Shown here piece by piece: positions 574 through 60,200 of a stretch of DNA of 64,000 bases. Below the pieces are notes generated by a model. That model did not search any database. It worked only from the letters and a program-made list of their open reading frames with translations, and had not been told where the DNA came from. Source of the stretch: Perna viridis (taxonomy: Eukaryota). The stretch covers positions 2,666,001 to 2,730,000 of the forward strand of contig CM074515.1 in assembly GCA_037379345.1 (NCBI GenBank). Direction: 5' to 3'. Made by a program: the position numbers and the translations under genes. Within the stretch, counting starts at the first letter, position 1. Every line of letters begins with the position of its first letter.

Positions 574-1898
574 TTAACGAATACTCAATATTTCGGTCGA
601 ATGATTCTATTATAATTCAGAACTTCCTAGTCACATATACCATTGAATTTGTGTGGCGCAAAACACATTCACGATAACAGTATGGTTATGTAATCTACAT
701 GTATTTAAATAGACATTTTCAACGCATTATTTTTGTTTAGAAAGAAGTCCTCAGAACAGATTATGTAATTGATATTTTAGAAGCTTTAGTTGACTATTGT
801 ACACCAGCAAATTAATAGAAACTATTCATATCTTTGCATGGTTTGTGTTGCAAGGTATGGGGTGTTTAGGGTTCTACAATAAAGTCGAGCAATTTACAGA
901 ACGTTGGTTTAGTCGGTATGGTGCTTTTGTGGCTAATAATGCCTGGACTTTGATTGTTGTGTCGTTGATTTCTAACGTATTTCTTGGGTATTTCCAGAAT
1001 GGAAACTGAAGAGGACATCGAATATATACACCCAAGTACAGTCAAGCATCTGAAGATAGGCGCACCGTCAACAAGTTGTTCGGTGATAAATCAGCAACCA
1101 ATTTCTTCCCGCACAGTCTAAGTGGGGCAGGCTGTTTCGGAGATGTCATCTTTAAAAGCAAAACAGGAAACATTCTTTCAAAAGAAGACATAGTTGTTTA
1201 TACAAATATACTGAATAAAACGTTTACTAAAGACGGGACTGGTTAATTTTCGTTATGAAGATGTTTGTGCAAAGAGACCAGGGGCGTGTCCAGGATATTT
1301 GAAAGGGGGGGCGTAGAATAAAATATTTCGCCGAGCGAAGAGAGGCGAAAAAATTTTTGGACCTTTTTTGGCTTAAAAACATAAAATAATAGAGAATTGC
1401 ACTAATGTAACGGTTCCTGACTTGGAGCATGTATATTTTATAGTTAAAGTGTCAGGGTGTGACATTTTTTATGCCGAGTTTTCTCCATTAATTGTCTATG
1501 GTATATTAAAATGATTGGATGGATCTTAACAGCAGTAGACCAATAACGAGAAATTCCAAACTCAAGGGTATAAGGAGTAACTTAACATTTCAATACCTAG
1601 GCCAGGATTTTATGAACGAGAGGCGTGATTAAGGTTGAGGGTCCATGGGGAAAATCAGAAGCTCCTGAATTTCAACAATTTAGCATCAAATTATGAAGTA
1701 ATCCCTCTATTTTTGATTAAGTTCGGGTTTCGTTGAACGACACACATGATACAAGACAAATAAACACTGAAGAATAAAGTTCTTTCGTTCTGAGTATTGC
1801 TTTAATGTGGAAATATACATATATCTAGTATACATGTACCTTGACGCAAAACCTAAAATGAACACAGAAAAATACTGACGGACTCTCATTTTCAATTA

Positions 1899-4145
1899 CT
1901 AGAGTGGATTCATAAGAACCATTTTACGTGGATTTCTCATGGCGTAATCGTCAATAATTTTATCAAAATCAAGTTTAATGTCTCTGTGAATATACAAAAG
2001 AAGCAGAGCATTTAGGCGATCCTCCTTCATGGTGCTTCTCAAATCATTCTTGATCAACTTAAGGGATGAGTTAGCTCTTTCGGTGGAGCTTGACGTGACG
2101 CTCGTCAAAGCAAGTAAGAAGAGAACTTTCATGATGTTTGGAAATAAAGTCGAGCATGCCCTTACATCAGTTAAGGTTGATGTTATTGACTCTGGTTTGT
2201 CCGATTGATTTTCCCAAAACGACTTCCAGAGTCTCATCTCTTGCCTGAATGTTTCAGGCGAAGGCATATCAGTATTGTAATAATCATAAACATCCTTCTC
2301 CATCTCTTCGGAAATGAGGTGAACTCGGAAAGGCAAAATTGACAAGGCACGAACAACAGAGACAGCCTCTTGACCAAAACGCATATCAAGTTGCTGAATT
2401 AGCTCATCAAGATAAGGTAAGTAGATTGCCCGTTTAAAGTATTCTTTATCTGATGAAGCGGGAACATTGTTACGATGTGTCTGTCTAGCACAACGACGGG
2501 GCATTTTAAGCTCATCAAGTCCGGCCTTTACTGCCATGTCAGACGCATTACTGTAAACCAAGTCAAACTCTTGTTCATTTTTATGGGTTTCATCGATGAT
2601 CTGTTTCACAGCTCCGATCATTTTATAACCTTCAACAATGTCTAAAGATGAGCCTTGAAGCTTAGAACTTACTCCACGTACATAACCAAAAAAGTTGTGT
2701 ACTGTTTGGAAGCAAATAATAAATGTACTATCTGTTATCTTGGACAGAATGCCATGAGCATCCGTAATAGCCTTTTGGTCCCACGAACGTCCCTCATTGG
2801 AGCTTATGCCTTCTAAACATGCTACCAATGCCTCATACATTGTCGCGAATGTGTCGAGTGTGGCGTGTTTCTCTGTCCACCTAGTTTCACAGAAGATTTT
2901 GAATTTTGATTTAGAAATTTTGTTATTTTCTTGTCGATTGTTGTTAATATCTTCTACCTCCGTTTCTAGTCGTCGGCTTCTTTTAGGGGAATATTTAAAA
3001 AATATCCCGAGTTGTTTGAGAGAATCTAGCATGAGATGGATTTCTGTAACCTTACAACTTTTACACAGCACTAAACTTAGATTGTGACTAGCGCAATAAT
3101 GATACATTGCGCGTGGAGAGATTCGTGTTAACCGTGCGGCACATCCAACGTTTTTCCCTGACATATTTCCTGCCCCATCCATAGTCTGCGATCTACATAA
3201 CTGGATATCCAAACCATTACTAGCGAGGGACTGAACGACAAGATTACAAAGGGATTCGCCAGTGGTTTCCTCGGCCAAAATAAATTCTAGCAGGCGTTCT
3301 ACTGGAACTCCATCGACGACATAACGTAAAACCAGTCCTAACTGTTCCCAATTGCTAGTGTCTGATACCTCGTCGCATTGGATTCCAAAGTATCCACCAA
3401 AAGGCTGGGACTTCACTTCTTCCACAATAGATTTCTGAATGTATGTCTTAATGCAAGTTAACAACTCGTTCTGAGAAGTGTTTGATGTGTAGGTTGCTAC
3501 CTTTGAACACGTTTCAAAATGTTGTTTTAGGGTTGTATCGCCCGCATTTATTCTAAATTGAATAAGTTCTTTGAAATTACCCTTGTTCTTACTATGGCCT
3601 GTATCATCATCCCGATGTCCCCTAAGCGCCATTCCACGCCTTCCACAGAACTCTAAACACTTAAGCATAGATCTGATTATATCACGGTTCTTAGCGATGA
3701 TTGCTGCATGATTCGATTGCAGATTGACGTCGATTCTGTGTGACTGATTGACACACGATTTCTTGAACCCATTCAATCTAACCATCGAGTCAGCGTGATT
3801 ACCAGTCTGTGCATGCTTTTTCAAATCGACAGTGGTGTCTTTCCATTTATTGAATGGTTCTGTAACTAACACTCTTGGTCGGCGACCGGATGTGTCCGGA
3901 AAAAACTTACAAGCAAGGCAATATAACCCATCTTTCAACTTTGAATATGCTATGAATGGGAATTGCTCAAACCAATCGCGACAACAAGATCTTTTAAAAG
4001 TTCCGCTTTTGCATCTTTTATCGTTATATAATTTAAACGGAAATTTAAAGCCTGGTTCCGGACACCGATTAGACAAAATCCTGAATTTTACATCGTCCGA
4101 TAGGGTATGTACATCAATGACTCCAATATCATCTGATAATTGCGA
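1899..4145 (-). CDS. hAT transposase: TTF-type zinc finger, DUF4371-like region, DDE core and C-terminal dimerisation domain
   Basis: WFEQFPFIAYS..GLYCLAC..DLKKHAQTGNH (TTF zinc finger); ALRGHRDD/GNFKEL; TYTSNTSQNEL; QCDEVSD; QTMDGAGNMSG; YHYCASHNL (CxxH); CETRW; STERANSSLKLIKNDLRSTMKEDRLNAL. The frame stays open upstream of the annotated 4076 start up to the TGA at 4148-4146. Confidence 0.93.
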   Translation of the reverse strand, partial: SQLSDDIGVIDVHTLSDDVKFRILSNRCPEPGFKFPFKLYNDKRCKSGTFKRSCCRDWFEQFPFIAYSKLKDGLYCLACKFFPDTSGRRPRVLVTEPFNKWKDTTVDLKKHAQTGNHADSMVRLNGFKKSCVNQSHRIDVNLQSNHAAIIAKNRDIIRSMLKCLEFCGRRGMALRGHRDDDTGHSKNKGNFKELIQFRINAGDTTLKQHFETCSKVATYTSNTSQNELLTCIKTYIQKSIVEEVKSQPFGGYFGIQCDEVSDTSNWEQLGLVLRYVVDGVPVERLLEFILAEETTGESLCNLVVQSLASNGLDIQLCRSQTMDGAGNMSGKNVGCAARLTRISPRAMYHYCASHNLSLVLCKSCKVTEIHLMLDSLKQLGIFFKYSPKRSRRLETEVEDINNNRQENNKISKSKFKIFCETRWTEKHATLDTFATMYEALVACLEGISSNEGRSWDQKAITDAHGILSKITDSTFIICFQTVHNFFGYVRGVSSKLQGSSLDIVEGYKMIGAVKQIIDETHKNEQEFDLVYSNASDMAVKAGLDELKMPRRCARQTHRNNVPASSDKEYFKRAIYLPYLDELIQQLDMRFGQEAVSVVRALSILPFRVHLISEEMEKDVYDYYNTDMPSPETFRQEMRLWKSFWENQSDKPESITSTLTDVRACSTLFPNIMKVLFLLALTSVTSSSTERANSSLKLIKNDLRSTMKEDRLNALLLLYIHRDIKLDFDKIIDDYAMRNPRKMVLMNPL

Positions 4146-5103
4146 TCAAAAGGTATCGTCAACTGGAATTCCCGCAGTTTCCTCGTTGCGTTCATTGTTG
4201 AAGATAGGTGACTCATCATCTCCAGTACCGGAAGTTTCATCGTTATTGTCATTACAGGACATACATGACTCATCATTTTGAGTATCTGCAGTTTCGACGT
4301 TATTTTCATTGATGGAGACAAAAGACTCATCCACTTCTTTACCCGAAGTTTTATTGTTGCTTCCGTTGTCACAGTGGAACGTAGACTCTTCATCAATTGA
4401 CATCTCATGGCTAGTATGTTCTATATTTGGTATGTCAGTCTCATAGTCAGTGGATCGCGGTGAATTAGACGCCTGGACGTCTCCAACTACGTCAGAGTCG
4501 ACCACTCTTAGTTTAGAACTGACCAGGGGTGTTATCTCAAACTGTGATTCAGCGAATCGGTCTGTGATCGATTTGTTTAAATCTTTGATATGTGATATCA
4601 AACTTGAACACGAGGAAAATGACAGTACAACAGCTTTACCAGATGGAACACATAGTCCCATATCATTGCGACTGTGTGAATCAATACAATAAAGTATCCC
4701 TTGAGCCTTTTTTAAGCCGATAGTTGAACCAGGGTTACTTCCAAGTGTAATGAAAGAAGTTTCACTCTGTGCTAATGATTGGTGTAATGCAGACTCTAAA
4801 GTAAATGTTAAAGCGTCAGAATTGTCACTTTCCTGTTCCACAAGTCCACTCATCGGATCTTTCATTGTAATAGAGAAACTTTCGTTTTCAATAAAAATAT
4901 TCTCCGGAAACTCTGTTATTAGCATGTAGCCATCGGTAGTACAAACTTTATGGTACAAGTCAGTACCTCTTAGAAGAATATTATCTATTTCATCTCTAGT
5001 CTTTGGAATAGTATTATCCAACATGAAAGCCAATGCAATGCACGTACATTGTCGTCCACCGCCGTTTATATCACCTTGATGCATTGACCCTTTGCAAACC
5101 AGC
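4146..5103 (-). CDS. Herpesvirus large-tegument-like (VTD / peptidase C76-type) cysteine protease/deubiquitinase domain plus acidic linker; 5' part of exon 2 of the transposase gene
   Basis: GSMHQGD..GGRQCTCIAL (Cys codon 5048-5046); IDNILLRGTDLY; YCIDSHSRN..G..P.GKAVV (Asp 4682-4680, His 4676-4674). Splice acceptor ttgtttttgcattctag ends at 5104. Same frame as the transposase. Confidence 0.8.
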
Positions 5104-5159
5104 CTAGAATGCAAAAACAAAATCTGTTAACATATGAATTACACGGACACGTATGATAC

Positions 5160-5485
5160 ACTTAACACATTTGTAACGGAACTTCCCCATTTTTTCATTC
5201 TTGTTAAAGTGCATGTCATTGCTATACACGTAGCCAAATGTCGCCCCCCCTCCCCCCGAACCAAAAAAATCAAGTCCCATAACTCATACAGAATTAAATG
5301 AAACATTTATAATGATGGTGCGAAATGATATCAACTACATGTCATGTTAAACAATCCTGCAAAAAATGAACGAATCCGTCCAAGGTTTCATAGGAGTTGT
5401 GTACACAAAATAGTCACTGTGTGACGGACGAACAGAGGCCACCATTTCCATGTCCCTCTGACGCGTGGCCGATGGAAGACAATTC
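5160..5485 (+). repeat. Interspersed repeat fragment (Helentron/DINE-like) inside the transposon intron
   Basis: 'acggacgaacaga' microsatellite-like tract followed by '..catgtccctctgacgcgtggccgatggaagacaat' end structure, resembling non-autonomous rolling-circle elements. Confidence 0.35.
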
Positions 5486-6124
5486 AGGGGAGATATTCTT
5501 GAATGTCTCTAATGTAGCAGGAGTTGCGTATATAAAGACTGAGAAGGTTTAAAGGGTAATTATATAGTATACTGACAAAACATATACAAGTGATACCTCG
5601 CCACGCATAAGGGGATGGCAAATAGTGTACTATAAAACTGTAATTTCTCACAAAAATAGTTCGTAGATTTTGCTAAACATGGATTTAATATTAACACTAA
5701 ACAACTACATTGAACTGTGCAAATGTTAAAAACGTGTATCCGTTCTCGAGTTATTGTATTAAAACCACCGGGATGGACGGACCGACGGAAAATGTTGTTT
5801 GTGCTGTATTTATACCACTCTACCAAGAAATGTTTTGCATGCACACGTATAAAAATTGCGGTTTTTATCCAACGCAATCATAGGTTTGAACCCCGTTCTG
5901 GATATCATAGTCAAATCTGAGTGACCCCTTCCAAGGCAACGCGTGAAAAAATAACCCCATTTTAGACAATTTAGCTGAAAATACAACCCCTTTTGTCAGA
6001 ATATACCCAGTATTGTATATATAGTAATATACCCCCCCCCCGGTATATTTAGAATGGCTATGGGGAATCGAAGTTAGTGTCACATAAAACAACCAAAATT
6101 CATGTATTATACTGATTTACTTAC

Positions 6125-6207
6125 CGTTTTGGTTGTTTAAAAAAGGTGTCCAAGACACCTTGATACGATTTTAAGGTCTTTTGACGTTTTGTTTTTGACA
6201 TCGACAT
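6125..6207 (-). CDS. Exon 1 of the transposon gene (MSMSKTKRQKTLKSYQGVLDTFFKQPKR)
   Basis: ATG at 6207-6205, then 27 codons plus 2 nt, ending at donor CG|GTAAGT. Phase 2 matches the acceptor at 5104 (CG+G = Arg). Basic NLS-like segment and a QxxLxxFF motif. Confidence 0.75.
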
Positions 6208-6411
6208 CTTTGCGAATTCTTTATCACATCAACAACAATGGATACTAATCGCAGAGTCGAACACGCCGGACTCCGAGAAACGAAATTTTACGGTTGATGA
6301 TGACCCATCAAATTGGGGAATCAGTATAAAAAGAAATCAGAGTATGTGTTTAATTAATGAATATGATAAATTGCCATCATTCAATACAATACTAGCAGAT
6401 TATAACGATAG

Positions 6412-6442
<31 letters not shown>

Positions 6443-7790
6443 GGGGGGCGTACGCCCATTACGCCCTTACCTGGACCCGCCCCTGGAGACATTCTCGTTA
6501 TATTGTCACCGGGGACGTCCTATTCAGTGCAGAGTTTCAGCGCAGTATACAATTCAACAACATTTCTTACCCGGTTTTCGATTCAACGTCAATAAAAAAA
6601 CGCATTTGGTGATACAGTTGTGGAAAATGGGACATTGTCTTCTGCTACTTATTTTAAATTTAGATTTAATTTACGAACAGATTCGACATCAAAAGAAACG
6701 GTTAAACTGTGGATGATATCATTTCTAAATACGACGAAAGAAATGGTCACTAATAGGACATTTCTGTATTATGCTCACAGTGAGTCTTTAGGTCACGAGA
6801 TTTCCTCGCATCTTGATGACGACATCGTTCTTTTCGTCTTGACTTTTGTTTTCATGATATTGTACTCTAGTCTAGCTACTGCAAACTGGCAATGTATTTC
6901 GGACAAACAAAACCTGGCAAAAGCTGGTGTATTAGCGACAATTTTGTCTGTAGTTGGCTCTATTGGGCTAATCAGTACGTGTCATAGCAAGGTCGTTGCA
7001 ATTGTAGGAGTGATGCCGTTCTTGATTCTAGGTACGACATAGTTCATGAACCTAGTTTATTAGCACGTCATTCACTCAAAAAGTTGATGTAACGTTTTAT
7101 TTGTGTAAAATAAAAAAAATGTTACTTAGAACAGTGTTTGTAATCATATAAGCTTCTATTATATACACAACTTTTTAGACTACATTCCAATCTGCTATTC
7201 ATAATGATATCCTATAGTTGCACATTTTTCTAAAATCATTGTAATCATTGTATTAATTTTTCTACCCGAGAGGGTCCATGATTGGGGAATAAAACTATCG
7301 TATCTTGTCTTATTTTATACTTTTTAATATGTTTATTTGGCAGGAAGAAAACAGATCCCTTGTTAGGACGCTTTGAAGTTAAAATTAAAGAAATAACATT
7401 CCTTATTATGCAATTACGCCTGTCTGTAATTAGGTTACTATCGTAACGTTTCACTTTTGTATTTATAGGCATTGGTGTTGATGATATGTGTGTATTGCTG
7501 TCGGGTTTGGCGGAGACTTATGACGATGATCCAGATATGGAACCCGACGACCGAATTCAGAAAGTCATGAAAACCGGTGGAGTCAGTATCACTATAACTA
7601 CTTTAACAGATCTGATAGCGTTCTTCGTAGGAACAGCATCGTCATTCCTCAGTGTAAAGAACTTTTGTGTTTTTACAGGTATGAAACATGTGATATTGAC
7701 TTTCCGATGATGAGAAATCTTGTGTATTATAAAGGTTTCTGTAAGATTTTGACGTCTTTAAGATTTATTTACATCCATTTCGTACATTTC

Positions 7791-8512
7791 TTTTTATACG
7801 ACTTTTTTTAGCACTGCAGGAGTAGGTATCACCCTGTCGTTATCGTTGACTTTCATTGTTCCTAAGGACATGGCAGAGGATCCAATAGTTTTTTGAAAGA
7901 TGTTTGCCCCACCCTTTTAAAAATATGGGGCTAAAAGAGAAAAAAATAGGTGTTTTCATTAGAATTGACTTATCCTTAACCATTTTGGCGTTAAAGGTGA
8001 ACAACATTCGACCGCATAAAAAATAAACTTTTTAATTTTTGGTCCGATCGATTTAGAATTTTTGTCATTGGATATTTTCTGAATGTTTTCAATCAGATTT
8101 CAGATATTTCTTACGGTTTTTGAGATATAAGTGTTCATAGGGGCCACTACTTTTTGTAATATTTGGTTCGATTTTGATTTTATGGAGGGTTTCTTTTGAA
8201 TATCTCTGCCCGCATTATTCAATCAGATTTCAGATGTCTCTTACGGTTTTTGAATTATAAGGTGCCTGCCCCGCCCTTTTCCCCCCAAAAAAAAATGTTT
8301 TTTTTTTAATTTTTAGTCCGATTTCGATTTTTTTTAAAATTAAATTTCAAATTTGGTGCATTATTGTGTCCATATCAGCTGTTGTGTCCATAACGAACTG
8401 CAAGTTCATATTTTGAAGTGTGTTAAAAACAAATACTGCGTCCACACTTGCCCCAAAGAACATAGTTCGACATGCTACGGTCGTATCACGTTGCACCCCG
8501 CGAGGCTCTATG
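7791..8512 (+). mobile_element. Degenerate HINE-like element in intron 2 of the patched-like pseudogene
   Basis: Starts 'tttttatacgac'. Internal repeated 'aatcagatttcagat..cttacggtttttga' at ~8091 and ~8221. Ends with the inverted 'ggtcgtatc' plus a GC-rich tail. Confidence 0.45.
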
Positions 8513-10437
8513 TAAAAAATCTACTCTCACCTTCTTTTGTTATGATTCGTCAGGGGTTATGCATTATGCATGTGAACTCTCTATCTGCTTAATCGTTGAA
8601 TGTAAGGTTTTCTAGATCTCGAAGACGTCCATAGCTGATATCAGTTCCACGTGGGATTGATTATTAAACAAGCGAAAGTCATTTGAATCTGTAAGAGTAA
8701 TCAGTGGAACCAAGGTTAATGAACTGGTTACTCCTAGAATAACCATCATTTTCCTTTCTCTTTTTTTTTAACTTTTTAATTTATTACGTCATATTTAAAA
8801 CAAACAACCTCTGAAAGATTTTTTTGTCGATTTGTCTCGTGATTGACTGATTAGACATCATTGTAATTCAAGAATTATGACAATATCTAAAGATCAAAAG
8901 TGAAAAAGTGTACATGGCGACACGTTTAAAAGCGCTGTGAGTGTGAACGCTAATATGTGTCCCCGAAAGAATCTAAAACAATAAAAAATGAATAGTACTA
9001 ATCCAACGTTTCAGGGATAGCACGTGGTGATATTGAGTTTCTTATCTTCATTAATTTTTAAATGTTCCATTAATCAGATTTCATTATTATTTGTAGGGCT
9101 GCGGTATTCCTGTGTTACCTGAATTATGTTACATTTTGTATGGGTTGTATGACTGCACGAAAGAAGAGTTGCAAAAGGTACCCATTGCTGTACCGGGAAA
9201 TACACACAATCTGAAAAAAAAACCCACAGAAATAAAGACAAAAACTATCAAATCCTGTATGTGCAGTGGCAGTAGACCAAAGAAACGAGAGGATATTGAG
9301 GGACCATTGGAAAAATATCCACAAAAATTCATTTCGAAATTAGTCTTAACTAGACCTTCTAAAGTTGTCATTATTGTTGTTTTTCTTAATTATGTCGGAA
9401 TATCGATTTGGGGTGCAATTCATTTTGAACAGGGACTTGTTCTCAATGCTCTGGTACCGGAACAATCTTATCTCTTCAATTATAATGAGATAGAAGATAA
9501 GTACTTTCCCAAAAGCATTCCAATATCTTTGATCATTCAGCACATAGGAGACTTTTCGGGTAGTACAACTTGGGACATTATGCAAAAACTCGAGAAATAT
9601 GCTGGGATGGACACAATGATAGATTCAACTAAAACGATGAATTGGATGAGCGCGTACAGAAAAACTCTATCGTTTGACAACTCTTCAGAGCTCGTGTTTT
9701 TAAAACACCTAAAAAACGATTTCTTATCTGTAACACCTATCTTTCAAAACGATGTTATATTTGATAAGACTGATGGTCGAATTAAGGCTTCAAGAATTTT
9801 TGTGTTTACCGAAGATACGTCTGACACGAATAGCTATCATGACATCATGTCCCGGATGCGGAAACTTGTTAAAAACTCGGCTTTTGACTCAGTCATTGCT
9901 TACTCATCCGCGTTCATATTTTTTTAACAGTATCAAACAATTTTGCCAGAAACAGTACTAAACCTTGGCATGACTGTGGTAGCCATATTCCTCGTGACAT
10001 CGATATTTTTGCCACATCCTGTGCTCATTTTCTTTATAACTGTGACCTTAATAATGATTTTGGTTGGGTTATTTGGATTTATGTACTTTTGGGATTTATC
10101 CTTAAGTTTTTTAACAATGATTCATATTTTGATGAGCGTTGGATTTTCTGTCGATTTCAGTGCACATATCTGTCATGGATTTATGGACACTCGCTCTACA
10201 GATCGACAGGAGGGGGTACGGGGTGCAATAAAAAAAAAAGCAGGCGCGCCAATATCCAACGGTGCGTTGTCGTCCTTAATAGGAGTTTCTATGCTTATAT
10301 TTTCGAAATCATTTATATTTCAGTCTTTCTTTAAAATTATGCTGTTGATCATTCTATTTGGCGCGGCTCATTCTTTCTTTTTCCTACCGACCATTTTATC
10401 ATTGATTGGAGTTTGATGCTGAAGTAATTGTAGAGAA

Positions 10438-15218: not shown

Positions 15219-18200
15219 GTAAGACATCTTATTATGCACAGTTATTATCTAGTATAAATATGCACACAGAAAATCCAAAATCATACTTAAGGTCCATTTA
15301 ACTTATTTTAAGATTGCAAGCGAAAAAGAGTCTTCTTCCATCAAGAAAATGGATAATTTTATTAAAACTATCTCAACTAAAGATAGGGTTATTGTAAAAC
15401 TGACATTATACTTTACGTCCAAAGTTTCCTTAAAGCTTCTGATCACTTTGAAAAGGATTTTGACAACCAGTCGAAAAAATTTCTTTGATTTTGAAATGTA
15501 TCGATTACTTCGGGAATTATTTGTCTAAATCTTGACTTTTGAAATATTTAATGTGTCTGACATTGTATCGGCCAGACACTTTGATTGCGGTTTATCGTTG
15601 GCCTTCTGGCCCTGTTATCAGAGACTATTTGGCCTACTTCGGAACATCAACACATGGAGTCCAGGGATGGTCTATTATCACGAATGTCTTATCAGACATG
15701 GACTAAATCACTATAATGTTCACTTAATGACTTCAATCGTGTATATCGCCATCGTAGACTTATATTAGATTCACTTAAATTTTAAATTGGAGACAAACAT
15801 AGATATGACTTGAAAAAATACTAACGAATACTGCTTCAAGATGTTCATTTTAGTGAAGAAAAGTTCTACCAATATATGCATTGCACCATAGTTTGTCCTT
15901 CCCATATAACTTAATCTTCAAATATGTGAACTGATGCTGGAACGGACACTTAGACGGAGACATTACAAAAAAGTTAACCAATAGTTCTAATAATACACGT
16001 TCGTCTACCCTTGAACGATTTTACTCTAAATTGCATTTCTACAGGACAATGTAAGTAATTAATTGGCACATGGATAAAAAATGCGTAAAAAGTTAATGCT
16101 TTGCTTCATTTATTATGGGAATACAAGTCATCTAGCTTTTAAACCTAAATCAGTTTAGTACAGCTTTATCTGCTTTTGCAAGGAATATAGAATAAGCTTG
16201 CTCAACATAGCACTATACCATTGTCGGAAATTCGCTCTTACCTAAGAAGCTTGGTTCGCTTTAATGCAAAGGACTGTCAAATTTTGCCTTACTGTATATA
16301 GCATGGTTAGCAATATTCTTGCTTCATTAAATCATTTTTGCGCCTTGTTTCGCCTTCTCGAATGCCTATGCCGAGTTTTAGTATTGCCTGACTGGAATAG
16401 CTTCTACAGTATATCAGCACTATACCCGGCGGCGGATGGGACTGTCCTCGGTCTTCCCATAACTGAACAGATTTCTGGCGTATATGGATTGCAACAAAAC
16501 TTTGAAACTGCCTCATCGCTTGATAAGGAGAGGGATACTGCTTATGTTTTTCATCTGCCCTATTGGAATGCTTTATGAGAAATTGCTTAATTGTGTTTTT
16601 TTTTAATAAGGCTGAGATTACTTGATAATATAATTCAAGGTTAAGAAAAACTTCAGCTAAGAAAAATCTGACCGAAAATGCTAAGATCTATAGTACCTAT
16701 CACATGTACAAAGAAAATCGTTAATATTAAAGAAAATGATATAACGTCTTTTCGTCGTTTTACTTGAATCTAAATTCATAATTATATGTAAATATTGAAC
16801 GAAAATTCACAATGGCAAACAATGTGAATGTTGATGATGAACACGACCATTTATGTTACAACAGCATGCATACCCCAAGATATTATGTTCATGGTGGACA
16901 CCTCAAGTGGAGTTGGCGCAAACAACTTCAGGGAAGAACTAGAATTCGTGAAATCGACAATACGTAACTATCATGTATCGGCACAATGTATACGTGTAGG
17001 TATAATGACGTTCAGTGGACAAGTTTACAATAATATTAAGTTTGGTCAGTACTCAACGACATCAGAACTGATGTCGGCCATAGATCAGATACAATATCAA
17101 CCAGGGAGGCGATATACCACAGAGGCCCTCAAATATCTCAACTCTAACGTTTTTGGTCAGTTTGGGAACGCTCGGGCCGGAGCTCAGCACATTGGTGTTC
17201 TCGTTTCTAACGGACAGGCATCAAACGCTCTCGCTTTTGCACAAGAAGCCAAGAGAGTGAGGGATAGTGGCACTAAGCTGTATACTGTCGGGATTGGTAC
17301 TGGCTTCCATCTTCAAGATTTGAAAAATGCAGCCAGTAATCCACATTCCAGATATGCAATGAATGCCCAGAACTTCGATTCTCTCGGTGATTTAGCATAT
17401 CCATTGTCGACAAGGACAAACAGTGGTAAGTTAGACACTGAGTTTGTACTTGGTGTACATGTCAAGGACACTATATACTATAATATCAATTCACTTCCCC
17501 ATTTAATAATAGTCGTCATTCAACATGCCCTTTATTCATGACATTAAAAAAATTACATTGTTGGGAATGACTTATATACTGCTTACACGCACACACCAAT
17601 AAACACCTATTCATGTAATTAAATAAAAGAAAATATCAATCTGAAATGCTTTATGATTTATTTATCATTTCAGACACCCAGCAATTACCAGCAGCATCAG
17701 GTTAGTTTCCCTGAATAGGTATACGTATAATTCCCATATCCTATTTACTAGTATCCTAGGGTGAAATTGATTTTTTTATTCTTACTTTTCGTCTACTCCG
17801 GACTTGAATTTTTATGAACAATTCGGCAGGTGTTTCTAGAAAAGCAGAGGACGCTTACCCTACCGGTGCACCTGGTTCATGCTCCCAGTTTTTAGTGGAG
17901 TCCGGTTTGCTTATTTACTTTTATTACTTTGTATGTATTATTTCGGTTGCTTTGTGTTCTTTGTTGTGTTTGTCTGTTTTCCATGTCCGATCTTTGTTTC
18001 TGGATTACATTCTTTTGATTTCCGGTTCTTGGTTCCTTTGATTACACTTCAATTTGATTTTAGTTCAGCAACTTAACCCGTGTACATTCATACAAAAAAA
18101 ATAAAAGCTTGTTACTTATACAGCTTTCGTTCATGTGGTGCTGAATAACAATTGTAAAAATTATGTTTTAGGATGCCTACAAAAAGCCGATTTAGTGTTC

Positions 18201-21200
18201 GCTGTCGACGGATCTGGAAGTATTGGACCACAAAATTTTGCAAAACTACAGGACTTCCTTAAAAGAATTGTAACAGAGCTAAACATCGGTCCAGATGCGG
18301 TTCACGTAGGATTGGTGAAATTCAGTAACTACCCGTCCATTGAGTTCCCGTTGGATATGTACATGTCACGACAGGAAGTCTTGACCGCTATAGACAATAT
18401 TAACTATGTTGGAGGCGGTACCAATACCGCTGAAGCCATTAATTATATGAACCACCAGGTTTTCAATCAAAAGAGCGGAGCTCGCCCTAATGTGCCAAGA
18501 ATCGCTGTTGTGATCACGGACGGACGATCCTCAAATCCAACCAACACAGCTAACGCTGCCAACCAGGCACGTGCCGACCATATTGGTATGATGTCGATTG
18601 GTATCGGTGCAGGTGTTGACCAATCAGAGCTTCAAGCTATAGCCGACAATCCCGATAGTCAGAATATGTTCATGGTAAATACCTACGATCAGTTGAAGGG
18701 TATTGTGTCCAATATCATCAACAGAGCTTGTCAAGTGAGATCCGTAGCCCCTGTAGCAACAACCAGAGCACCAGGTAATTAGTGTTGTCGACTCCATCAC
18801 CCGCACCCACATGCATTTCATCGTAAAGAATAATTAATCTTATAATGCCTTGATAGATCGACTTAATCCAAATTCGATCCCGTGAAGAAAGACATTCAAT
18901 TCCCCGTATAAACAAACAGAAACAAAAAAGTGTTGAAGGATATTAAAAACCTCCATTCCTCGCATCCCAACTATAACTTTAAAAATGTCATATCTATAGA
19001 AATAATTTTTTATGGACTATTTTCCCAGGTGCTTCACTGCCACCTGATCCATGCCAAGATGTACAACCTAACTGTAAGAGTTTCCAGGATGATATGTGTA
19101 CAAATTATGCACCATGGGCCAAGGACAACTGTGCTAGATTCTGTGGTTTCTGCAGACGTGAGTGAAATTTAACTATAGACATCTATATTGTAGTGAAAAG
19201 TTAAATTTTGCAGTAAAAATAATAACATTCTACATAGTCGGCAAGCTGTTTAATGATGATGCTAGATAGAAGTCTTGAGATATCTTACAAAATTTTCTAC
19301 TTGTTACTAATGCACCTCACCTTATTTATGACAACTGTTTATAACTTTTAAACATATATATACAGCTTTGTACACCACTGCACCACCACCATGTGTTGAC
19401 AGACTGACAGACTGTGCTAGCTATGGATTATTTGTGTGTAGTGATGCTAGATACAAGGACTGGGCTGGTGACAACTGTAGAAAATTCTGCGGTTTCTGTA
19501 AGTTGAACAATATTTTTTTTCAATTTACCGTTAATCCGTCAACTTCAGCATTACTTTCAATGTTGAAGGTCTGAAAAATGTTATGAAATCTCTTGCGTTC
19601 TCTTGCTTGACATCTACAGAAACTGAATGTGGGAATCCTCAATTAATCTTGATGATTTGTTTTGTAACAAGCTTCCTGATTGGTTGGTTCTCTCGAGCAT
19701 ATGTAACTATATAACTTTATTCCATATGAAAATATATCTTATAGGATTGACATCATCAAAGAAAAAGTAGTATACTACAACACATAGTATCGTTTATACA
19801 ATTAATATACTATATCAAAACACTAATCAAGTACATCAGCAAGTCGAACTATTTTGCATAACTTACTTGTTGTCACCCCACGATTCAAATGATCGCGAAC
19901 AAAATAACATTTTGGTAATGAGCAAATTCTTAATATTTGAATTAGAATCCATTAGAAATTGAATTATAAGAAATGTTACAAATTTTAAATAAGTTATATG
20001 AAATATCATGGGTTGGACCAGTTTACACTTTCTATATATTGGCTGATATTACAGGGCGCCGAATGGGACTTTTGCGGTTTTGTACTCAAAATTAAATTTT
20101 GTACAGACAAAAGTGAACTTTGTTCAACGAAAATGAGTTCAGATTAACAAAATTTATAACATAGTACAAATTTTAATTTTGTCATACAAAGTAATCTGTC
20201 CGTGGACAAAAGTTACTTTTGTCGATTTCTAGCACTGTTCTGTAGCTTTAGTATGAGCTCTGACGGTTTGTCACATCAACCTCATGTTAAATGTACCTTT
20301 TAACTTTATGGGTGGAGAATCCTTGTCTCATGGACATATTTCTTCTACTATGAAAAACGGTTGTGTTATGTTTTTAAATGTGTTTTTAATTGTAGGTCTG
20401 TCAAATGGAGCAACTGGATTCTGTAAGTTCTAGAAAGTAAAGAATAGGTTCTTGTTTTAAATATAAGTATTACTGGATAATTCAATTTTTCTTTAGTATA
20501 TAGTTGAATAAGATAAAGGGTCCAAGGGGAGCATTCCTATTCACGCTGGAAATTTTTATCTATTATACCAAGAATATCACCAGGAATCACTTGATCGGCC
20601 CTTTTAGTTGATCTGTGCCCCTCCTTTTCTGAATTTCTGTATCTACCATTGAATGAGGACATTTGGATAATTTCTTATCAGTGAATGTCATGCAATTTAA
20701 TACATGTTCTTTTTAGTCGGAAAATGTTATTACAAAGGAAAGCAATACCAGCATGGTGAGAAATGGATGGATGGATGTGATTATGAATGTGTCTGTGAAG
20801 ATGGAGCCTCCGGAAGATACCAATGTTACAATCGGTCAGTAGGATAGAATAGGTTAAAATCGGAAAAGATTCAAAGGTAAAAAGAGCATAAAATCTGAAA
20901 GTATAGAGAGATTGACTATGTGTGCACATACAATACCATAATACCATCTAGAGGACTGCACGACAATACCGATAAAGATATTACACTATAAGAAAACATA
21001 TAATGAGCAAAAATTACCTTCTTCTGTGCGTTAGACAAACAACGTGAAGGCAATGAAGAAAATCATTAGTTGACCGAAAATTGTGTTTATTAATCAATCA
21101 ATTAATCAATCAATCAATGACATATTATTGTGATTGTCAAAGACTAAAATTAAATAAACACAGTGATAGAGGTGCTAATTTTATAGAAAAAAAGGATGAA

Positions 21201-24200
21201 AGTAAAAAAATAAATCTTACCTTACTACCTCTCTCTTACTGTTACAGGTGTCCATTGTATTACGATCTACCAGCTGAATGTACACTGGTTCAGAACCCAT
21301 CTGAATGTTGTCAGCAACCTGTCTGCAATTTTAACCAGCAAATACAGACATTCACTAGCAATTCTCTTGGTAGACTTCCAAGTGGTCTAGGTAAGTTGTT
21401 ATTTTTGTGCTATTATCTCTCAATGACGGTTCAACTTCTGAAGCCAACGAATCATAGTTGAAGATAATAGACTATGGCCCTTGATGGTCTTACATCTTTT
21501 ATACACATGTATTTCCATGAACTATATAGTGGTTGTTGATATTTTCAGCTGTATGTGCTTATAAACAAGGACAGTATATCCAAGGTCAGACATGGCAAGA
21601 TGGCTGTGACTTTCAGTGCTCCTGTGTCAACGCTCAAACTGGAGAATACAGATGCCAAGACCTGTAAGCAATTATTACCATCAGTTCTCTTGTTTCCTTA
21701 AATCTCTATTATAATAGAGTATGTTGACCACACCGCTCTTGGCGGTGAAATAAAATTCTGAAGCTGTTCTAAAGTTATTTTCAGAAGGAAAAAAGCAGAA
21801 AAAATTACATTGCGTTTCAACAGTCAAACAGTCTTTCTGAGCTGCAGCACACACATTGAGGCAAGTAAGTCAGCTGCCTCTCCATAATTATGACCGTATA
21901 TAATTTTCATTTTTCATAAGCATAATTTTAACTGAGTTCATGGAGTGAGAACAATACTTTATTAAAATTGTCTGAGTTTTTATAGCTCGATAAGTACACG
22001 TTACTCAGACAGTGATCTGATAAGTATGTTTTCCGTAACTAGAATTACAGGGCCGACAAAGCAATGCAATTTTTTTTTCATTTGGGGGTATTTGTGAAAA
22101 AAGAAAAATTTCCTGCCTCGCTTCGCTCGGCTTTTTATATTAGTTACTCCCCACAACATGTAATTCTTCATCCACCGCTGGTTTGACTTCAGCCAGAGAA
22201 AACATACCTTATATATGTCCTTGTTACTAGTTTTATTTACTTTAATAGTCACTGAAATAATGAAATAAGTTTTTCTTCATTGAAAATTTGAATAAAAACT
22301 TGAAAAAAAATTCTGGCATTTTAAAATAGAAAATACTTGGAAGTGGTCTAAAGACACCTGCTGATTTTTTCTTGTCTCGCTCAGCAAAAGTATCTTGCAT
22401 CACTATGACAAAATGCTTCAGCTACAACCTTGACCTTCAAATTACATTATTTAATTAGTGCATGTATAATAATTGCTTCTGAGTAAAATCTGTGTTAAGA
22501 ATTACTTGATTCTTACATGTATCTTTAACTTCCTTCCAAAGACTTTCCCACCAGGGAAAAATAGTTGTGTCTGTTGTTTCATTCCCCGGTAGGTGGTTGC
22601 CCCACGAATAGCTGCTTCACTGTTGAGTCGATAAAGAAAACACATACGAGGCTCTTATTTGACAAACTATTTTTTATGAACTGCTGTTCTGCCAAATATT
22701 CAGTTTAAATTGTAAGTCTCTGTAAGAATCAGGCTAAATGGAAAAAAAAATCAGAAACATGCATGTAATAAACCAAATCTCTTTTGGGATGTCAGAGCTT
22801 GTCCAATCAGGGGCGGATTCAGGATTTGAGTTTTTTTTTTTTTTTTTTTTATGGGGGGGGGGGCATTAATTGAATCAAATGCCATGAAATGCAAGACAAA
22901 AATATTATGGGAAGAAACTTGTGGTGAAAAATATATATAACATAAAAGTAGCCATTTGTCTTTAAGGGTGCCTCGCTTCCAACTCATTTTTTTTTTAAAT
23001 ATGAAATCAGCATATATTGTTTTACCAGTGATGTAGTTTGCATATACTCAGATGAATGGTACACCACTGATTACTATTTACTGCAATGTGATCACTTCAC
23101 AGAGGATGAATCAATTGTGACATCACTAGGATGTATTATACAGCTTAATTAATTTATGACATTACTAGGCTTTATTACATGGTTTATCTGTTGATTATTT
23201 CAGTTAATTTTTGGTTTTATATAATAATGTTTTTATTTTGCCAGTTGCCCTACCTATGGTTCTGTTCCACCTTATTGTCACATGACCAAGACAGATGGAG
23301 AATGTTGTGCTAAACCTGTATGTGATTTCACCACTCAACAAGGAAGCTTTACTGGAACTGGATCTGTCAGTGGAAAAGGAGTTGGTATGCATCAGATGGT
23401 TGTAGAATCTAAATTGGCTCATTTTTATTTTAAAAAAAACCTCCTTAACATTTGTTAATGAAATAGTTCAGGGAGCTCGGAAGTAGAAGTGGTATTATAT
23501 TTAGATGTTTAAGTTCATTTTTTTATCTATATAAGTATCAAAGTTTCATTGCTCCTGTCAATACATTGTTTTGTTCTTTGTATCAATATGATATGAAAAT
23601 AACACTTTTAAATAGACAATTTACACTAGGGTTTTAACCCTTTCCATCATAATGGCGCCTTTTGACGCTCCTAATTATAGGACACTCTCCCTTTTTTCTA
23701 GGGCTTGTAGTGGGCTAATGCACAAATTTCTCTGTACCTTTTTTGGCTAACTTAATTGGAAAGGCTTTTAACTAAAAAAAAACTTACTATTTTTCATGCA
23801 GTTGGGGACCAAAAAGAAATCTTGCAGGGGACAGGAAAATCTGGAGGCCTGACAGCTTTGCAAAATAGCCTAAACAATTTTTCATTAGCTATATTTTCTG
23901 GATTTAGCAGGTTTCTGACCCTACCATTTCATACTGATTTTTTTTTTAATTTAAAAGTCAAGTTTCAGTGAAAAGAATTGTCAAAAAATGCATTTTTCTG
24001 CCCCTTTTTGATCCCCTGCTGTCTCCATGGTAACCATAAACATGTCATCGCAACTTTTTTTCTGAAAACATTTTGCTAGTTAATACCTCCTCCAAATTTA
24101 AGCTTATTTGGACTAAATTTGAAAAATCTAGAACATTTTCAATATTTGGCTTGAATCACTTGTGTAAAAAAATGACACATCAGCTAAATCCCATAAAGGA

Positions 24201-54200: not shown

Positions 54201-57200
54201 TTGACAGATGGGATTGTTGATTCCTGAAAAGCATGGCCGCCATTACTAAAAATAGAACATAGGGGTCAGATGACAGTTTTTTGCAAATAACTCAAAAACC
54301 GTCGCCTTTAGCAAATTTCTGGCACGGGTAAAATTGTAAAGCATCATGAGAAGGACCAATGCCGAAATTTTCAAAATCATCCATTGACTAATGTAGGAGT
54401 TACAACCCCTGAAACAGTTTTTTTGTTATTTTTTTTTCACATGTACAACTTTGAAAATCTTCTTCTCTAAAACCATTTAAGATCATTGAATGCAAATTAG
54501 CATGATAGTTCTTTAGTGTGTTGTTCTCAAAATGACTGTTGTGATTTTTAATCTGTAAATAGATATGACTGCCTATACTAAAAATGGAACTTAGGGGTCA
54601 TAAGACAGGTTTTTGAAAAAAATTCAAAAATTGTAGCCTTTAACAAAATTTTGGTTCAGGTCATGAAAATGCTATGAATAATTTTAGTTGATTTTAACTT
54701 AGCCTGTCTCATTACTCAAGTTTTTCAAATAAGCAAATGGTTAACCAGGTGAGCAATTCAGGCTCTCTTGAGTCTCTAGTTTATGAAAGAGGTAGTAAAT
54801 ACAAGAATACCAATCATGTATATTACAAAAACTCCAGGAGTAACCTGCAACTAAAGTTATTGTAGCAACACTTATTATCGGTGAATTTAAATGTTATTTG
54901 TATAATAGGAGTTTTTAACATTATTTCAGGTAAACCAAATTATATTGTTATGAATTTCAGGTGTGCTAAGTACCCCAATCTAGACAGCCACTGTGTACTG
55001 GTACAAGATCCTAGTGATCCATGCTGTGAGAAGCCATTCTGTGACTATGTCAATCCTACACCATTCCCTACAGGAGTACCTACACCTAATCCATACATTA
55101 CACCATCTCCAAAACCAGGCCAGAACACTGTAGCTCCAACACCTGTACCAAGGCCTACCTTCAGTAAATGTGTATACAAGGGGGTATTCTACTCACAGGG
55201 TCAGACTTGGCAAGATGGATGCGACTTCACATGCCAGTGTGATGATTCCATGAACAACTTATATACTTGTCACAAGAGGTATTTTTTCATTTATGTATGT
55301 ATGTATTCCATTAATCAATTTTTTTGCTAACTAATGTTTAAGAGCTGTTGATTGACCTAATTTAAATTGGAATGTGATCAAACTTTTATGTAATCAGGGT
55401 CTTTTTTAAGAAAGCCAGACTCAGCTAGTTATGAATTTTAAAATCTGTTAAACAATTTCAGATGTAAAACCTACTCTCAGGTACCTGCTGGATGTAAACT
55501 GACAACTGACCCTAGTGATCAGTGTTGTCTGGTTCCCAACTGTAATATTAACCTCTTCCCCAATACTCCTGGTACAGTGGTTGGTGGTACTACGCCAGCT
55601 GGGTATACTGTTAACCCACAATACTACACTGGACCTTCAGGAACTAGACCACAATACATTTACCCAACACCCATACAGCCAGGAACATTCATTGGAACCA
55701 ACACTGGACAAAATCCATTTGTTCCAAACACAGGAACCAGTTTCACTGGAAGTAACCAAAGTTAGTAAAAGAAATCTGAGGCTACATATTCCTTCCTTTC
55801 TCTTTGGCTTATGCTCCTCTTATTTAAAACATCTATAAGCTTTGAGTTGAGTTAAGCAGATTAATTATTATAACACTATCAAGATTTTGTTTGTTCTTAG
55901 AGAGACAGTGTAAGATTTTTTTTTTCTTATTAGATTTAAGTAATTGCTCTTTTGATTAAGTTTTGTATGAAACAGTTGAGGTAAGTTGACTTTTTATATA
56001 TCTCTATCTTGACTTAATCACTTTTCCTCTTGTAATTTAGATATGTGTATCTACAAGGGTAAGATCTACCAGCAGGGACAGAAATGGGATGATGGCTGTG
56101 ACTATAGGTGTGAATGTTTTGATGCCACCAGAGGACAATATAGATGTACAGACAGGTAAAAACTGAAATTTGGAAGATGTCATCTGAGTAAATGTTGATT
56201 AAAAACTTTCTGTTGTCTTTGATTTCACAAATCACACTGGAATATTTTTCTCTATTATTTGTTCTACACATGACACTTGAATATTTTTCTCTATTATTTG
56301 TTCTACACATGACACTGGAATATTTTGTACAGTATTTTTCCTGCAAATGAATCTGGAGTATTTTGTACAATGTTTTTCTTATAAATGATTCTGGGATATT
56401 TTGTACACTATTTTTCCTGCAAATGAATTTAGGATATTGAATTAAAGAAAAAGACACGGTTTGGCGTGATCTGAGCAAATTCATCCATCTTCCAAAGTTT
56501 ATTTATTATATTGTAGATGTCCATCATATCCATTCCTTCCACCTCAGTGTACATATGTACAAGATCCCAAAGATCAATGTTGTCAAATGGCCAGATGTGA
56601 CAGCTTCCAGACACCTAATCCTAACCCTATTAGAACCCCAACTCCTGGACCAAATACACCTTCACCAAATGGCCCAACAACACACCAGCCAATTAACATT
56701 ACTCCAGGACAGAACACTGGACCTGTTGGCACTGTAACACCACCAAACCAAGTCACACAGACTATCACAGGAAGAACAGGCAAGTCATAAAGGTTATCCA
56801 TTTAATCAGAGGTCACTTTTAATTTATTAACATTTATATAGACCAAGATTGGTACAACAATGTATTGCACAAAATATTACAATGGAAATATATATCTACC
56901 AGAAGATTGCATGTTTCAATAATGAAATAATAATTTTAATATCTATGTTACATAAAAATCTGAATTGAATTTGTTTTTGGCTTGTTACTATTCCAAGTAC
57001 AGTATTTTAAAGTTGGTTTAATGCAGAAAAAAGTGTGAAAATAGTATATACAACTTTCTTTAAACTCTCTTAAGTAATGTGAGAAAGTCAATACAGAAAT
57101 AGTGAATCATAATATACTTAATACTATTGAAGTATTGATAGGGATTTTATGAGGTCATTTTGTAGCACTATTGAAGTATTGATAGGGATTTATAAGGTCA

Positions 57201-60200
57201 TTTTGTAGCACTATTGAAGTATTGTTAGGGATTTATGAGGTCATTTTGTGGCACTATTGAAGTATTGTTAGGGATTTATGAGGTCATTTTGTAGCACTAT
57301 TGAAGTATTGTTAGGGATTTTATAAGGTCATTTTGTAGCACTATTGAAGTATTGTTAGGGATTTATGAGGTCATTTTGTAGCACTATTGAAGTATTGTTA
57401 GGGATTTATGAGGTCATTTTGTAGCACTATTGAAGTATTGATAGGGATTTTATAAGGTCATTTTGTTGGATTCAAGTTAGGTTTACATAATTTGTGGCAT
57501 GATGACATCATTATCATCATCGCACAGTAATGACTGTTGGAATGACTATACCTTACAGTAATGATACAATTTTGTATGATAGAAAGGGTTTTATATCATT
57601 ATATTTTTATTTAGCATGTTAAGAATTTTTTTTATTTCTGTACAGATATGTGTATGTACAAGAATACATTGTATGCTAGAGGACAGAGATGGCAAGATGG
57701 ATGTAACCTAAACTGTATCTGTGAGAGCCCAGTTGGTAACCACTTCAGATGTACAGCTAGGTATTTCTCTACCTAAAGTTCAAACTAATAATTCTCAAGC
57801 CTTACTTCTCTTTTTTACATTAATTGAAATAGTCATTGCATTTCTTATCAGATTCTTGTATACATTTTTTTGTACTTTAAAAAGGTAAAATATTACCCAG
57901 AAACAACTTTCTGTAGTGATACTTCAAACTTATTGTTTTGGTTGAGGATACTCTTTGACAGTTGTCAATCCATTATAGAAGCAACATGTTTATTACAGTG
58001 TATTTAATTTATGCCTTTGTTTTAAGGTGTAAATCGTACTCCAGTATTCCAAACTTCTGTACATTGGTACAAGATCCTAATGATGCATGCTGTTCTACAG
58101 TCAGATGTAATGTTAATGGACAACAGTTGACCCCATTGATCCCTGATGGCAGACCCACACCATCACCCACCTTGGCACCTAACATGATCAATGTTGTACC
58201 TCTTGGTACACATACAGTCATCACTGGATCAGGATTACCTAATGGTCAGGTTCCAGGGGCAACTGGAGGCAGAAGTAAGATCATAGCAAAGTGTTTGATA
58301 TTGGTTCTAATAAAAAAGAAAAATATTAACACATATTCCCAATGTATATTGAAAGCAAAACCTTTTTCAACAATTGCAAATAAACAAATGCCAAAAGCTG
58401 GCGTATTGTGTTTTTTTTTCTCTCCAAGAGTGTCAGGTTTATATCACTATTTTGTTCACTATGCTATAGTATGTTCCAGAGGATTTGTTTTAAAAGTCTA
58501 ATGATTTTAGGTGTGTGTATCTACCACGGCCAGGTGTACAAACAGGGAGAATCATGGGACGATGGATGTAAATATGTATGTACATGTGAAGATGGAAGTA
58601 CTGGAATGTACAAGTGTACTTCTAAGTAAGTAATATAAGTACATGCATAGAAATAAGAATATACAAGTAAATTTTATTGTCCGGATATGACTGAACTTGT
58701 CTAATCTTATTATCTGATACACCTTGCCAACAGAAAAAAGTGTTGGTTAAAAATTAATGCTGAAATGCACAGTTTGGAAGAACATCAATTATAGAACATA
58801 CAAGCACAGGATCTATATAAACTTGCTCTGTATTTACAGATGTCCACAGTATCAAACTATTTATATAAACTTGCTCTGTATTTACAGATGTCCACAATAC
58901 CCAGCTATCCCATCATTCTGTTCCTTCACTAAAGTTCCAGGCCAGTGTTGCCCATCCCTACATTGTAACAGCCCAACCTTTGGTAACTACAACCCTCTGC
59001 CACAACTGGTCCCAACACCCAGACCAAATGTAACACCCACTCCAGGAAACCCTAATCTGATTGTACAGCCACAGCCTGGAACTGGAACTTCTGGACAGAA
59101 CCCTATTGTTGTTTCACCAGGAACAAGTCAGACATCATTTACAGGAAATACTGATAGTAAGTCATTGTTTCATCATTCTTAATTCCAATTTCTTAGGACA
59201 GACATAAAAAGTTTCCCCAAAAATTGGAAGTAAATATTTGCTTTTTTTAAAAGAATAATCAAGGGAACCAAGGCCACAGCGGCAACCAAAAGAATGCAAC
59301 CCAGGGACAAAGACCAGACATGGAAAACAGACACAAACAACAAAGAACATAAAGTAACTAAAAGGGAGTAAGATTTAAATAAATGATGTTATTTTCTGAC
59401 TTGAGTATTAGCCAGGGTAAATAACACATGTGTTTGATAGATAAGTGAACAATTGTAAAAGGAAACTAAATACAAACAAAATTCAAATAAAATACATAAA
59501 AATATAGAAATGAGACACAAACTTTTGGCCCTATGGCTTTCGTTGGGGGCAAAAAGTTCTGGTGCCGTTTTATGAATTTCACATAAAGTTGATGATAATT
59601 TTTCAGACTTCTGTATCTACAAGGGTAAACTTTACAACAAAGGAGATAAGTGGGATGATGGATGTGACTACAGTTGTGAATGTCTTGAAGGAAGAAGTGG
59701 ATACTATCAATGTAAACCTAAGTATGTGTAAACCAATACTGTGAAAGTATTATTGTTCGTCAGGTACCAATTTTCATGGTTTTCATGGGCTTGGTAAACC
59801 ATGAAATTTGGTTCCCAATGAAAAGGAAATTTTCCATTCGTTTTTTAGCTCACCTGGCCAAAGGCCATGTGAGCTATTGCCATCTCTTGGTGTCCATCGT
59901 CATCGTCTGTTGTTGTCTGTCATCATCGTCATTAACAATTTTTCAAAACTCTTCTCCTCTGACACTACTTGACCAATTGGATCCAAACTTTGTATGAATG
60001 TTCCTTGGGGTATCATGCATAGAACTGATGTGGGGATGGCTGCTGTTACTAAAAAATAGAACATAGGGGTCAGACAGTAATTTTTGGCATTTATCTCCAA
60101 AACCGTTAGGTTTAGCCAAAATCTGACGGATAAAATTGTTCAACATGATGAGATCTATCTGTGGTCAAATTTTCATTTTAATCTGTTAAGCCATGTTGGA

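Follow-up and report, generated by a model that had tools for sequence, protein, structure and literature searches.

VTD proteases have been described on Helitrons (Helentron/HLE2), an example being zebrafish DrT1-VTD2, PDB 8ADD (PMC9741609; PMC11417382; these and the papers that follow are cited for the available portions of their text). Ginger1 transposases carry OTU or Ulp1 proteases interchangeably, for which a role in transposition was proposed, and Mutators carry Ulp1 (Bao et al. 2010, PMC2836005). The purpose of ubiquitin/SUMO proteases on transposons has been a subject of speculation since at least 2010 (PMC2836005) and again in 2022 (PMC9741609), and no experimental test of it was found in these portions. 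Cnidarian VTDs fused to unnamed 'transposon-associated domains' are also mentioned (Erven 2022, PMC9741609). The subject of this work is a VTD joined to the cut-and-paste transposase of a hAT element in Perna viridis. The element lies in a 64,000-nucleotide stretch (GCA_037379345.1, contig CM074515.1, positions 2,666,001 to 2,730,000 of the forward strand), which is called the window and whose first letter is position 1. The fusion of VTD and transposase is almost certainly real.

The complete element occupies window 1279-6485 on the minus strand, as do all of its features, and measures 5,207 bp; terminal inverted repeats (TIRs), a target-site duplication (TSD) and further genome copies define it. 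The 16-bp 5' TIR (6470-6485) also forms the end of other copies and is complementary to the 3' TIR (1279-1294) at 15 of 16 positions. The gene has two exons. Exon 1 (6125-6207) encodes a basic N-terminus and ends in a phase-2 GT donor, and exon 2 (1899-5103) follows an AG acceptor that ends at 5104; the GT-AG intron between them covers 5104-6124 (1,021 nt). Joined, the two exons give 83 + 3,205 = 3,288 nt, that is 1,096 codons for a product of 1,095 residues, with the TGA of codon 347 (4148-4146) and the terminal codon as the only stops. The product carries, in order, a PCNA-interacting peptide (PIP) box, the VTD (4512-5103), a flexible, acidic, low-complexity linker without conservation between families (4140-4511) and the hAT transposase (1899-4139). 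The original prediction, an earlier reading of this DNA from its letters alone, had proposed these exons, splice sites, join and single TGA, as well as TIRs around them, and all are present in the sequence. Its protease motifs also occur as written, except that three residues rather than two precede the P in the D-x-H region.

The N-terminal domain is a predicted VTD (Herpes_teg_N-type) protease with intact Cys47, Asp169 and His171. A phmmer search of 177,635 PDB sequences gave a single match at E<=10, the Helitron VTD 8ADD (E 5.8e-4). In this alignment Cys47 (5046-5048) falls on Cys322 of DrT1-VTD2, Glu92 (4911-4913) falls on Glu377, which binds the ubiquitin C-terminus, and the D-x-H motif with Asp169 and His171 (4674-4682) is in register. 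A search of 1.84 billion representatives returned 524 relatives at E<=0.001. The profile made from the query and 80 relatives matched only VTDs in the PDB (8 of 8 rows): 8ADD at 4e-35, four herpes large tegument proteins, M48 and Wc-VTD1, the herpes/M48 matches including 6PPB, 6W2D, 7ET3 and 2J7Q. Among the rows that cover each position, the Cys is kept in 63 of 64, the Asp in 78 of 79 and the His in 78 of 78, and the Glu92 position holds E or D in 78 of 81. Pfam PF04843 does match close homologues, and its newer precomputed model labels the proteins P0001, P0154 and P0272. The identity first proposed for the domain, a protease like the herpes tegument deubiquitinases (DUBs; MEROPS C76), is thus borne out by the PDB match, the profile, the aligned Cys/Asp/His and the modelled fold.

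The AlphaFold model of the domain (pLDDT 97) superposes on 8ADD with Z 25.4, rmsd 2.2 and 194 aligned residues (Foldseek E 3e-14, TM 0.84), on M48 with Z 21.1, rmsd 2.6 and 188 aligned (Foldseek E 3e-11) and on Wc-VTD1 with Z 14.6, rmsd 3.1 and 162 aligned. The best structure match that is not a VTD is AvrPphB (Z 12.6); a likeness of VTDs to YopT/AvrPphB was reported by Erven et al. (PMC9741609). The 8ADD-type Helitron VTD cleaves K48, K63 and K11 chains and Wc-VTD1 is of the K6 type (PMC9741609). As modelled, the fold is therefore closest to the K48/K63/K11-cleaving Helitron VTD and M48, with Wc-VTD1 of the K6 type further off. A joint model of the domain and the ubiquitin encoded in the same genome scored 0.67, and the best of three controls 0.01; among microbial pairs, 51 of 78 solved and 2 of 108 mismatched ones reach the score mark, and among eukaryotic pairs 71 of 105 and 2 of 126. 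The runs share at least 93% of contacts, with a partner pLDDT of at least 86, and place ubiquitin residues 68-75 and the Ile44 patch at the catalytic cleft, touching Cys47 and His171. Since VTD-ubiquitin complexes have already been solved, the model is read as likeness and not as binding. Catalytic activity on ubiquitin or NEDD8 is probable.

The domain thus shares with the Helitron VTDs the fold, the Q-C and D-x-H sites, the conserved Glu and an in-frame position with a transposase. The carriers differ: the Helitron protein is a rolling-circle RepHel, whereas the window carrier is a DDE hAT of the cut-and-paste kind, bounded by TIRs and TSDs. The herpesvirus proteins UL36, UL48, BPLF1 and M48 (Pfam Herpes_teg_N) match by fold and profile, but at 18-19% identity, and the VTD of the window stands in a transposon protein with no viral context.

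The assignment of the C-terminal part to a hAT transposase with a TTF-type zinc finger, also made in the original prediction, is upheld by a DUF4371 match above the Pfam cut-off (E 2e-20), by the DDE residues and by the short TIRs that fit the hAT superfamily. Dimer_Tnp_hAT falls marginally below its cut-off (E 4e-4, 20.6 bits against 21.4). The CxxH motif, the W and the C-terminal dimerisation region were located in the transposase; their roles and those of D605, D670 and E1036 are presumably those known from hAT transposases. Neither a RepHel (HUH + PIF1) Pfam match nor the lack of TSDs, as expected of a Helitron, was found.

The TSD of the window copy consists of 5 bp at 1274-1278 and 6486-6490. 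An 8-bp duplication was tried for this copy and rejected, as 5 bp alone matches on both sides among lengths 2 to 11. The TSD set of the family comprises 38 distinct two-ended insertions (18 + 20); L010, which lacks an end, and L018, a duplicate, are not counted among the 18. A 5-bp TSD is found at 34 of them, 32 exact and two with one mismatch, while the 8 bp canonical for hATs occurs, exactly, at only three and one insertion has none. The 8-bp duplications, with the same TIRs, belong to copies L009 and L012 and the pair L083/L084; this minority may stem from two staggers of a single transposase or from mobilisation of the family by a different hAT. hATs with 5-bp TSDs are known as hAT5 (PMC12730594, citing Kapitonov & Jurka 2007). 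By TSD length the element would be hAT5-like: most of its insertions share the 5-bp TSDs of that group, the three with 8 bp being exceptions.

At the DNA level, the search of the assembly that contains the window (723 Mb, 46 contigs) scored 40 of 416 candidates, so that copy counts are lower bounds. The Perna viridis genome holds at least nine full-length copies, 99.2-99.7% identical to each other, besides at least one copy truncated at the 5' end and many with internal deletions. The VTD is present in each of the nine, with invariant catalytic codons, and the domain is thus not a one-off fragment, a possibility that the original prediction had raised against itself. The spliced frame is open (1,088-1,095 residues) in four of the nine, interrupted by one premature stop in three and frameshifted in two; in copy L002 a single frame of 1,075 codons runs through domain, linker and transposase. 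The premature TGA (4146-4148) is private to the window copy: the other full copies (8 of 8) and the contig sets that span the site (2 of 2) have a Gly codon there. The window copy is consequently dead as a full-length source and could by itself yield only a 346-residue product of PIP box, VTD and linker. The family itself, judged from its sequence, is young and recently active. Exon 1 with its donor is retained by the copies with internal deletions at 10 of 10 loci (L011-L020, nine elements).

The same fusion is present in other genomes. The transposase search listed 120 of the 139 relatives found among 8,000 scored candidates, and the VTD profile detects an N-terminal VTD in 7 of these 120, including models from Mytilus edulis and M. 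coruscus. The Mytilus proteins XP_063442576.1, CAG2254819.1 and CAC5418271.1 have the same layout of VTD, linker and hAT transposase. Their entries are named '52 kDa repressor of the inhibitor of the protein kinase-like' or after a TTF-type domain, names that are annotation products and leave the protease out. Among 31 loci, the metagenome contig L041 has the VTD exon with the same phase-2 acceptor, linker introns, a transposase and a related TIR. The Perna viridis genome itself holds a second VTD-hAT family, older and decayed, which shares this acceptor position and is recognised by homology (L032-L035, L038 and L039; C4:21550525-21553199, C6:9804400-9807236 and C12:37988534). A profile search for longer VTD proteins returned 7 of 8,000 scored candidates and is weak as a census. 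P0272 (M. coruscus, CAC5418271.1) is 85% identical to the window family over 481 residues including the linker, while the other Mytilus VTD-hATs are just 57-58% identical overall; this closeness may reflect horizontal transfer or a close host.

In a FastTree analysis of 156 VTD domains, a group of 59 rows, whose support of 94 stays under the starred level, takes in each of the 11 hAT-linked rows and zero Helitron-labelled rows, 126 rows of the tree being unlabelled. The hAT-linked VTDs therefore group apart from those labelled as Helitron. Other members of this group run on into more distant hAT-like transposases, as does P0273, which stands outside the tree. A reading of the VTD as a nested Helitron fragment, or as a chance open frame outside the transposase, could draw on the long VTD homologues, most of which are Helitron proteins, and on the absence of the splice joint from four sequencing runs. 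It is largely refuted by the continuous frame of L002, the same fusion in the Mytilus models and the lack of Helitron-labelled rows in the hAT-linked group, and is hardly credible. VTDs, mostly of the same subgroup, were also observed on distant hAT-like transposases (P0042, P0051, P0055, P0115 and P0122; P0047; P0273/P0289; P0022). On P0153 a C-terminal VTD follows a pogo/Tigger-type transposase (HTH_psq, HTH_Tnp_Tc5, DDE_1), and P0096, an Ankyrin-repeat/CCDC144C-like protein, likewise ends in a VTD.

The position occupied by the VTD is filled otherwise in sister elements. An OTU-like domain stands at the same N-terminal place in 6 of the 120 listed relatives, as well as in L043 and L047/L051. 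These OTU-bearing hATs (P0166, P0192, P0214, P0225, P0229, P0231, L043:434-3301 and L047/L051) belong to the same and neighbouring clades and represent at least two OTU types; the label of P0214 was given by eye, without an OTU Pfam match, and those of P0229 and P0231 lie under the Pfam cut-off. P0162 and P0167 have a complete N-terminus and no protease, and L040 gave no VTD or OTU match in the 1.7 kb upstream of its transposase, although many labels of 'none' may hide upstream exons, as L047 showed for P0164. In an IQ-TREE analysis of 30 chosen transposase cores, a 20-row clade (99/97) comprises seven VTD, four OTU and two protease-less rows. Six of the seven VTD rows fall in one starred 8-row clade (96/93) that adjoins a weakly supported OTU group (86/77), and the VTD fusion in this clade may have a single origin. 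The exchange of VTD and OTU is likewise known in Helitrons and in herpes- and alloherpesviruses. Ginger1 is similar in that a cut-and-paste transposase carries one of two interchangeable ubiquitin/SUMO proteases (PMC2836005). On the other hand, Ginger1 belongs to another superfamily and has its OTU or Ulp1 at the C-terminus, whereas the type found here has VTD or OTU at the N-terminus, behind a PIP box.

The protease might be a captured passenger of little benefit, or a self-processing enzyme that frees the transposase. The protease-less relatives P0162 and P0167 in the same clade fit such a reading, and so does the lower conservation of the VTD, which is 37% identical between L002 and L041 against 57% for the transposase. 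Against this stand the triad, kept across families just 37-50% identical, the retained ubiquitin-binding Glu, the docking of ubiquitin in silico and the spread of the 59-row VTD group over several hAT lineages. Constraint on the domain between families is seen for the VTD of L002 and L041, where dN is 0.64 and dS 1.53, the latter near saturation, and identity is 0.68 at codon position 2 versus 0.40 at position 3. The passenger or self-processing protease is improbable. As sister hATs have OTU or nothing at this place, the protease is better seen as a helpful accessory than as an essential part.

The PIP box lies in exon 1 (residues 16-23, 6139-6162, with a Lys four residues behind). PIP boxes follow the consensus Q-x-x-[LIM]-x-x-[FY]-[FY], here Q-x-x-L-x-x-F-F. 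It is the sole strict match in the 1,095 residues, and a fraction of 0.0015 of shuffled sequences carries one within residues 1-28. Of 70 N-termini of relatives, 15 contain a strict PIP box, compared with 2 such boxes in 49,536 core residues. The RefSeq model XP_063442576.1 (P0277, M. trossulus) has a homologous N-terminus of 28 residues, likewise including a PIP box, and passes into the VTD at the same residue. The VTD would therefore have entered behind a PIP box that was ancestral, and ahead of the zinc finger. No PIP-box exon-1 candidate was found upstream in L032-L034, L040, L041, L043, L047 or L051, where flanks are probably too short. The host PCNA gene itself is split into exons.

The splice from 6125 to 5103 was predicted to appear as junction reads. 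Four runs were searched: two contig sets guessed to be RNA and two raw RNA runs (X21 and X24) under another organism label. Both contig sets use the 6125 donor but run on from it into foreign sequence; these contigs read the Gly codon at 4148 and cover 25-27 of 30 bins. In the two raw runs the VTD had zero reads and the transposase almost none. We infer the splice from homologous gene structure, as the acceptor position and phase are kept in L041 and L032-L034 and the N-terminus in P0277. The donor joined to foreign sequence suggests that the family may start chimeric host transcripts, which may give host exons a PIP box. Within the intron, a short part (5787-5891) draws many partly matching reads from another repeat.

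The reading that we favour, with somewhat less than even confidence, is that a PCNA-docked VTD strips ubiquitin chains mainly from the transposase itself. The PIP box would dock the predicted protein on DNA-loaded PCNA at sites of replication or repair, which is also where ligases coupled to PCNA, CRL4-Cdt2 for example, would act; CRL4-Cdt2 recognises PIP-containing degrons on DNA-loaded PCNA (PMC4865505). The adjacent VTD would then remove K48-type chains (also K63 and K11), mainly from the transposase, and so prolong its life on chromatin. The same protective role was proposed for Helitron VTDs by Erven et al. (PMC9741609). The PIP box beside the VTD in both the window family and P0277 supports this reading, as do two unrelated DUB classes in one slot (VTD in seven and OTU in six of the 120 listed relatives). 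The nine near-identical copies with their invariant catalytic codons, the fold nearest to the K48/K63/K11-cleaving VTD, the ubiquitin model, the constraint on the domain between families and the frequency of PIP boxes in N-termini of relatives also favour it.

Several observations weigh against it. As an ancestral trait of these hATs, the PIP box is found also without any protease, so its closeness to the VTD may be incidental. Classic CRL4-Cdt2 degrons combine a T-D pair with a basic residue at +4; the PIP motif has no T-D pair, and P0277 has no basic +4 residue. The 6125-5103 joint occurs in no read or contig of the four runs and is absent from the seven listed joints. In the Pfam scan, no family matched the window domain at E<=1, and a Thr stands in it where DrT1-VTD2 has Asp376; the acidic pair D376/E377 binds the R-x-R tail of ubiquitin (PMC9741609). 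The pass of the ubiquitin model may be memory of solved VTD-ubiquitin complexes. Variation within the family is too sparse to show selection (VTD: 4 synonymous and 5 non-synonymous changes).

A docked protease might instead act mainly on ubiquitinated PCNA or on repair factors at the excision or insertion site, and would thereby steer translesion or gap repair. BPLF1 of EBV, itself a VTD, deubiquitinates PCNA and lowers polymerase eta recruitment (according to reviews citing Whitehurst 2012), a repair role was proposed for OTU/Ulp1 on Ginger1 (PMC2836005), and the PIP box directly precedes the VTD. The presence of at least two OTU types in the same slot speaks for generic chain removal rather than for one specific substrate, and this alternative is rather unlikely. 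The VTD might also act widely as a deneddylase/deubiquitinase that would damp cullin ligases or germline ubiquitin-based silencing. Such counter-defence is in keeping with the cleavage of NEDD8 by 2 of 3 Helitron VTDs assayed and with the male-germline specificity of several animal VTD genes (PMC9741609). The tether to a DNA-bound transposase suggests local action instead, and a global effect seems quite improbable.

A wider proposal is put forward tentatively and with a good deal less than even confidence. A broad group of animal hATs would possess an exchangeable DUB slot, for VTD or OTU, between a PCNA-binding motif and the zinc finger; hAT-linked VTDs would have spread to other hAT lineages, with a separate VTD on a pogo-type transposase. 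The module would be a PCNA-tethered counter-measure against ubiquitin-based control of transposases or of cut-site repair.

A VTD on a hAT, and on DDE transposases, is apparently undescribed, whereas protease-bearing transposases as such are known (Ginger1, Mutator, Helitron). The term 'hAT' has zero occurrences in the main text and three text supplements of PMC9741609, whose figures and zip supplement lie outside this search and may list such proteins, and zero in the main text of PMC11417382. The available portions of PMC5751038 and PMC12062965 hold nothing relevant, and no description of VTD or OTU on hATs was found in the literature searched, from which Repbase, Dfam and most subscription papers fall out. 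The novelty first suggested for the architecture holds in so far as no printed description was found; among the 120 listed relatives, 5 already bear PF04843 together with PF14291 as automatic Pfam labels. The exon-1 PIP box, the 5-bp TSD and the exchange of VTD and OTU in sister elements go beyond the original prediction.

The element sits in coding-like sequence of a Patched-domain gene on the opposite strand (window ~880-1278 and 6491-10416, plus strand; PF02460 match at 6596-7039). This disrupted gene has frameshifts of its own and was already frameshifted. Elsewhere in the window, a terminus at 22808 resembles the family's TIR and probably belongs to another small hAT-type element. By eye, plus-strand exons at 16828-18782 and 54866-58501 resemble von Willebrand A domains and Cys-rich VWC-like repeats of host genes.

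The family makes the old speculation on transposon proteases testable, as it offers a compact two-exon element of 5.2 kb with open copies and defined ends. Natural sister elements with VTD, OTU or no protease are at hand, together with single-residue controls for the protease and the PIP box. With it, the VTD family extends to cut-and-paste transposons and gains a second mobile route by which it could pass between lineages. If the proposal of an exchangeable slot is true, the module would be a general strategy of mobile elements, testable in a young and intact element.

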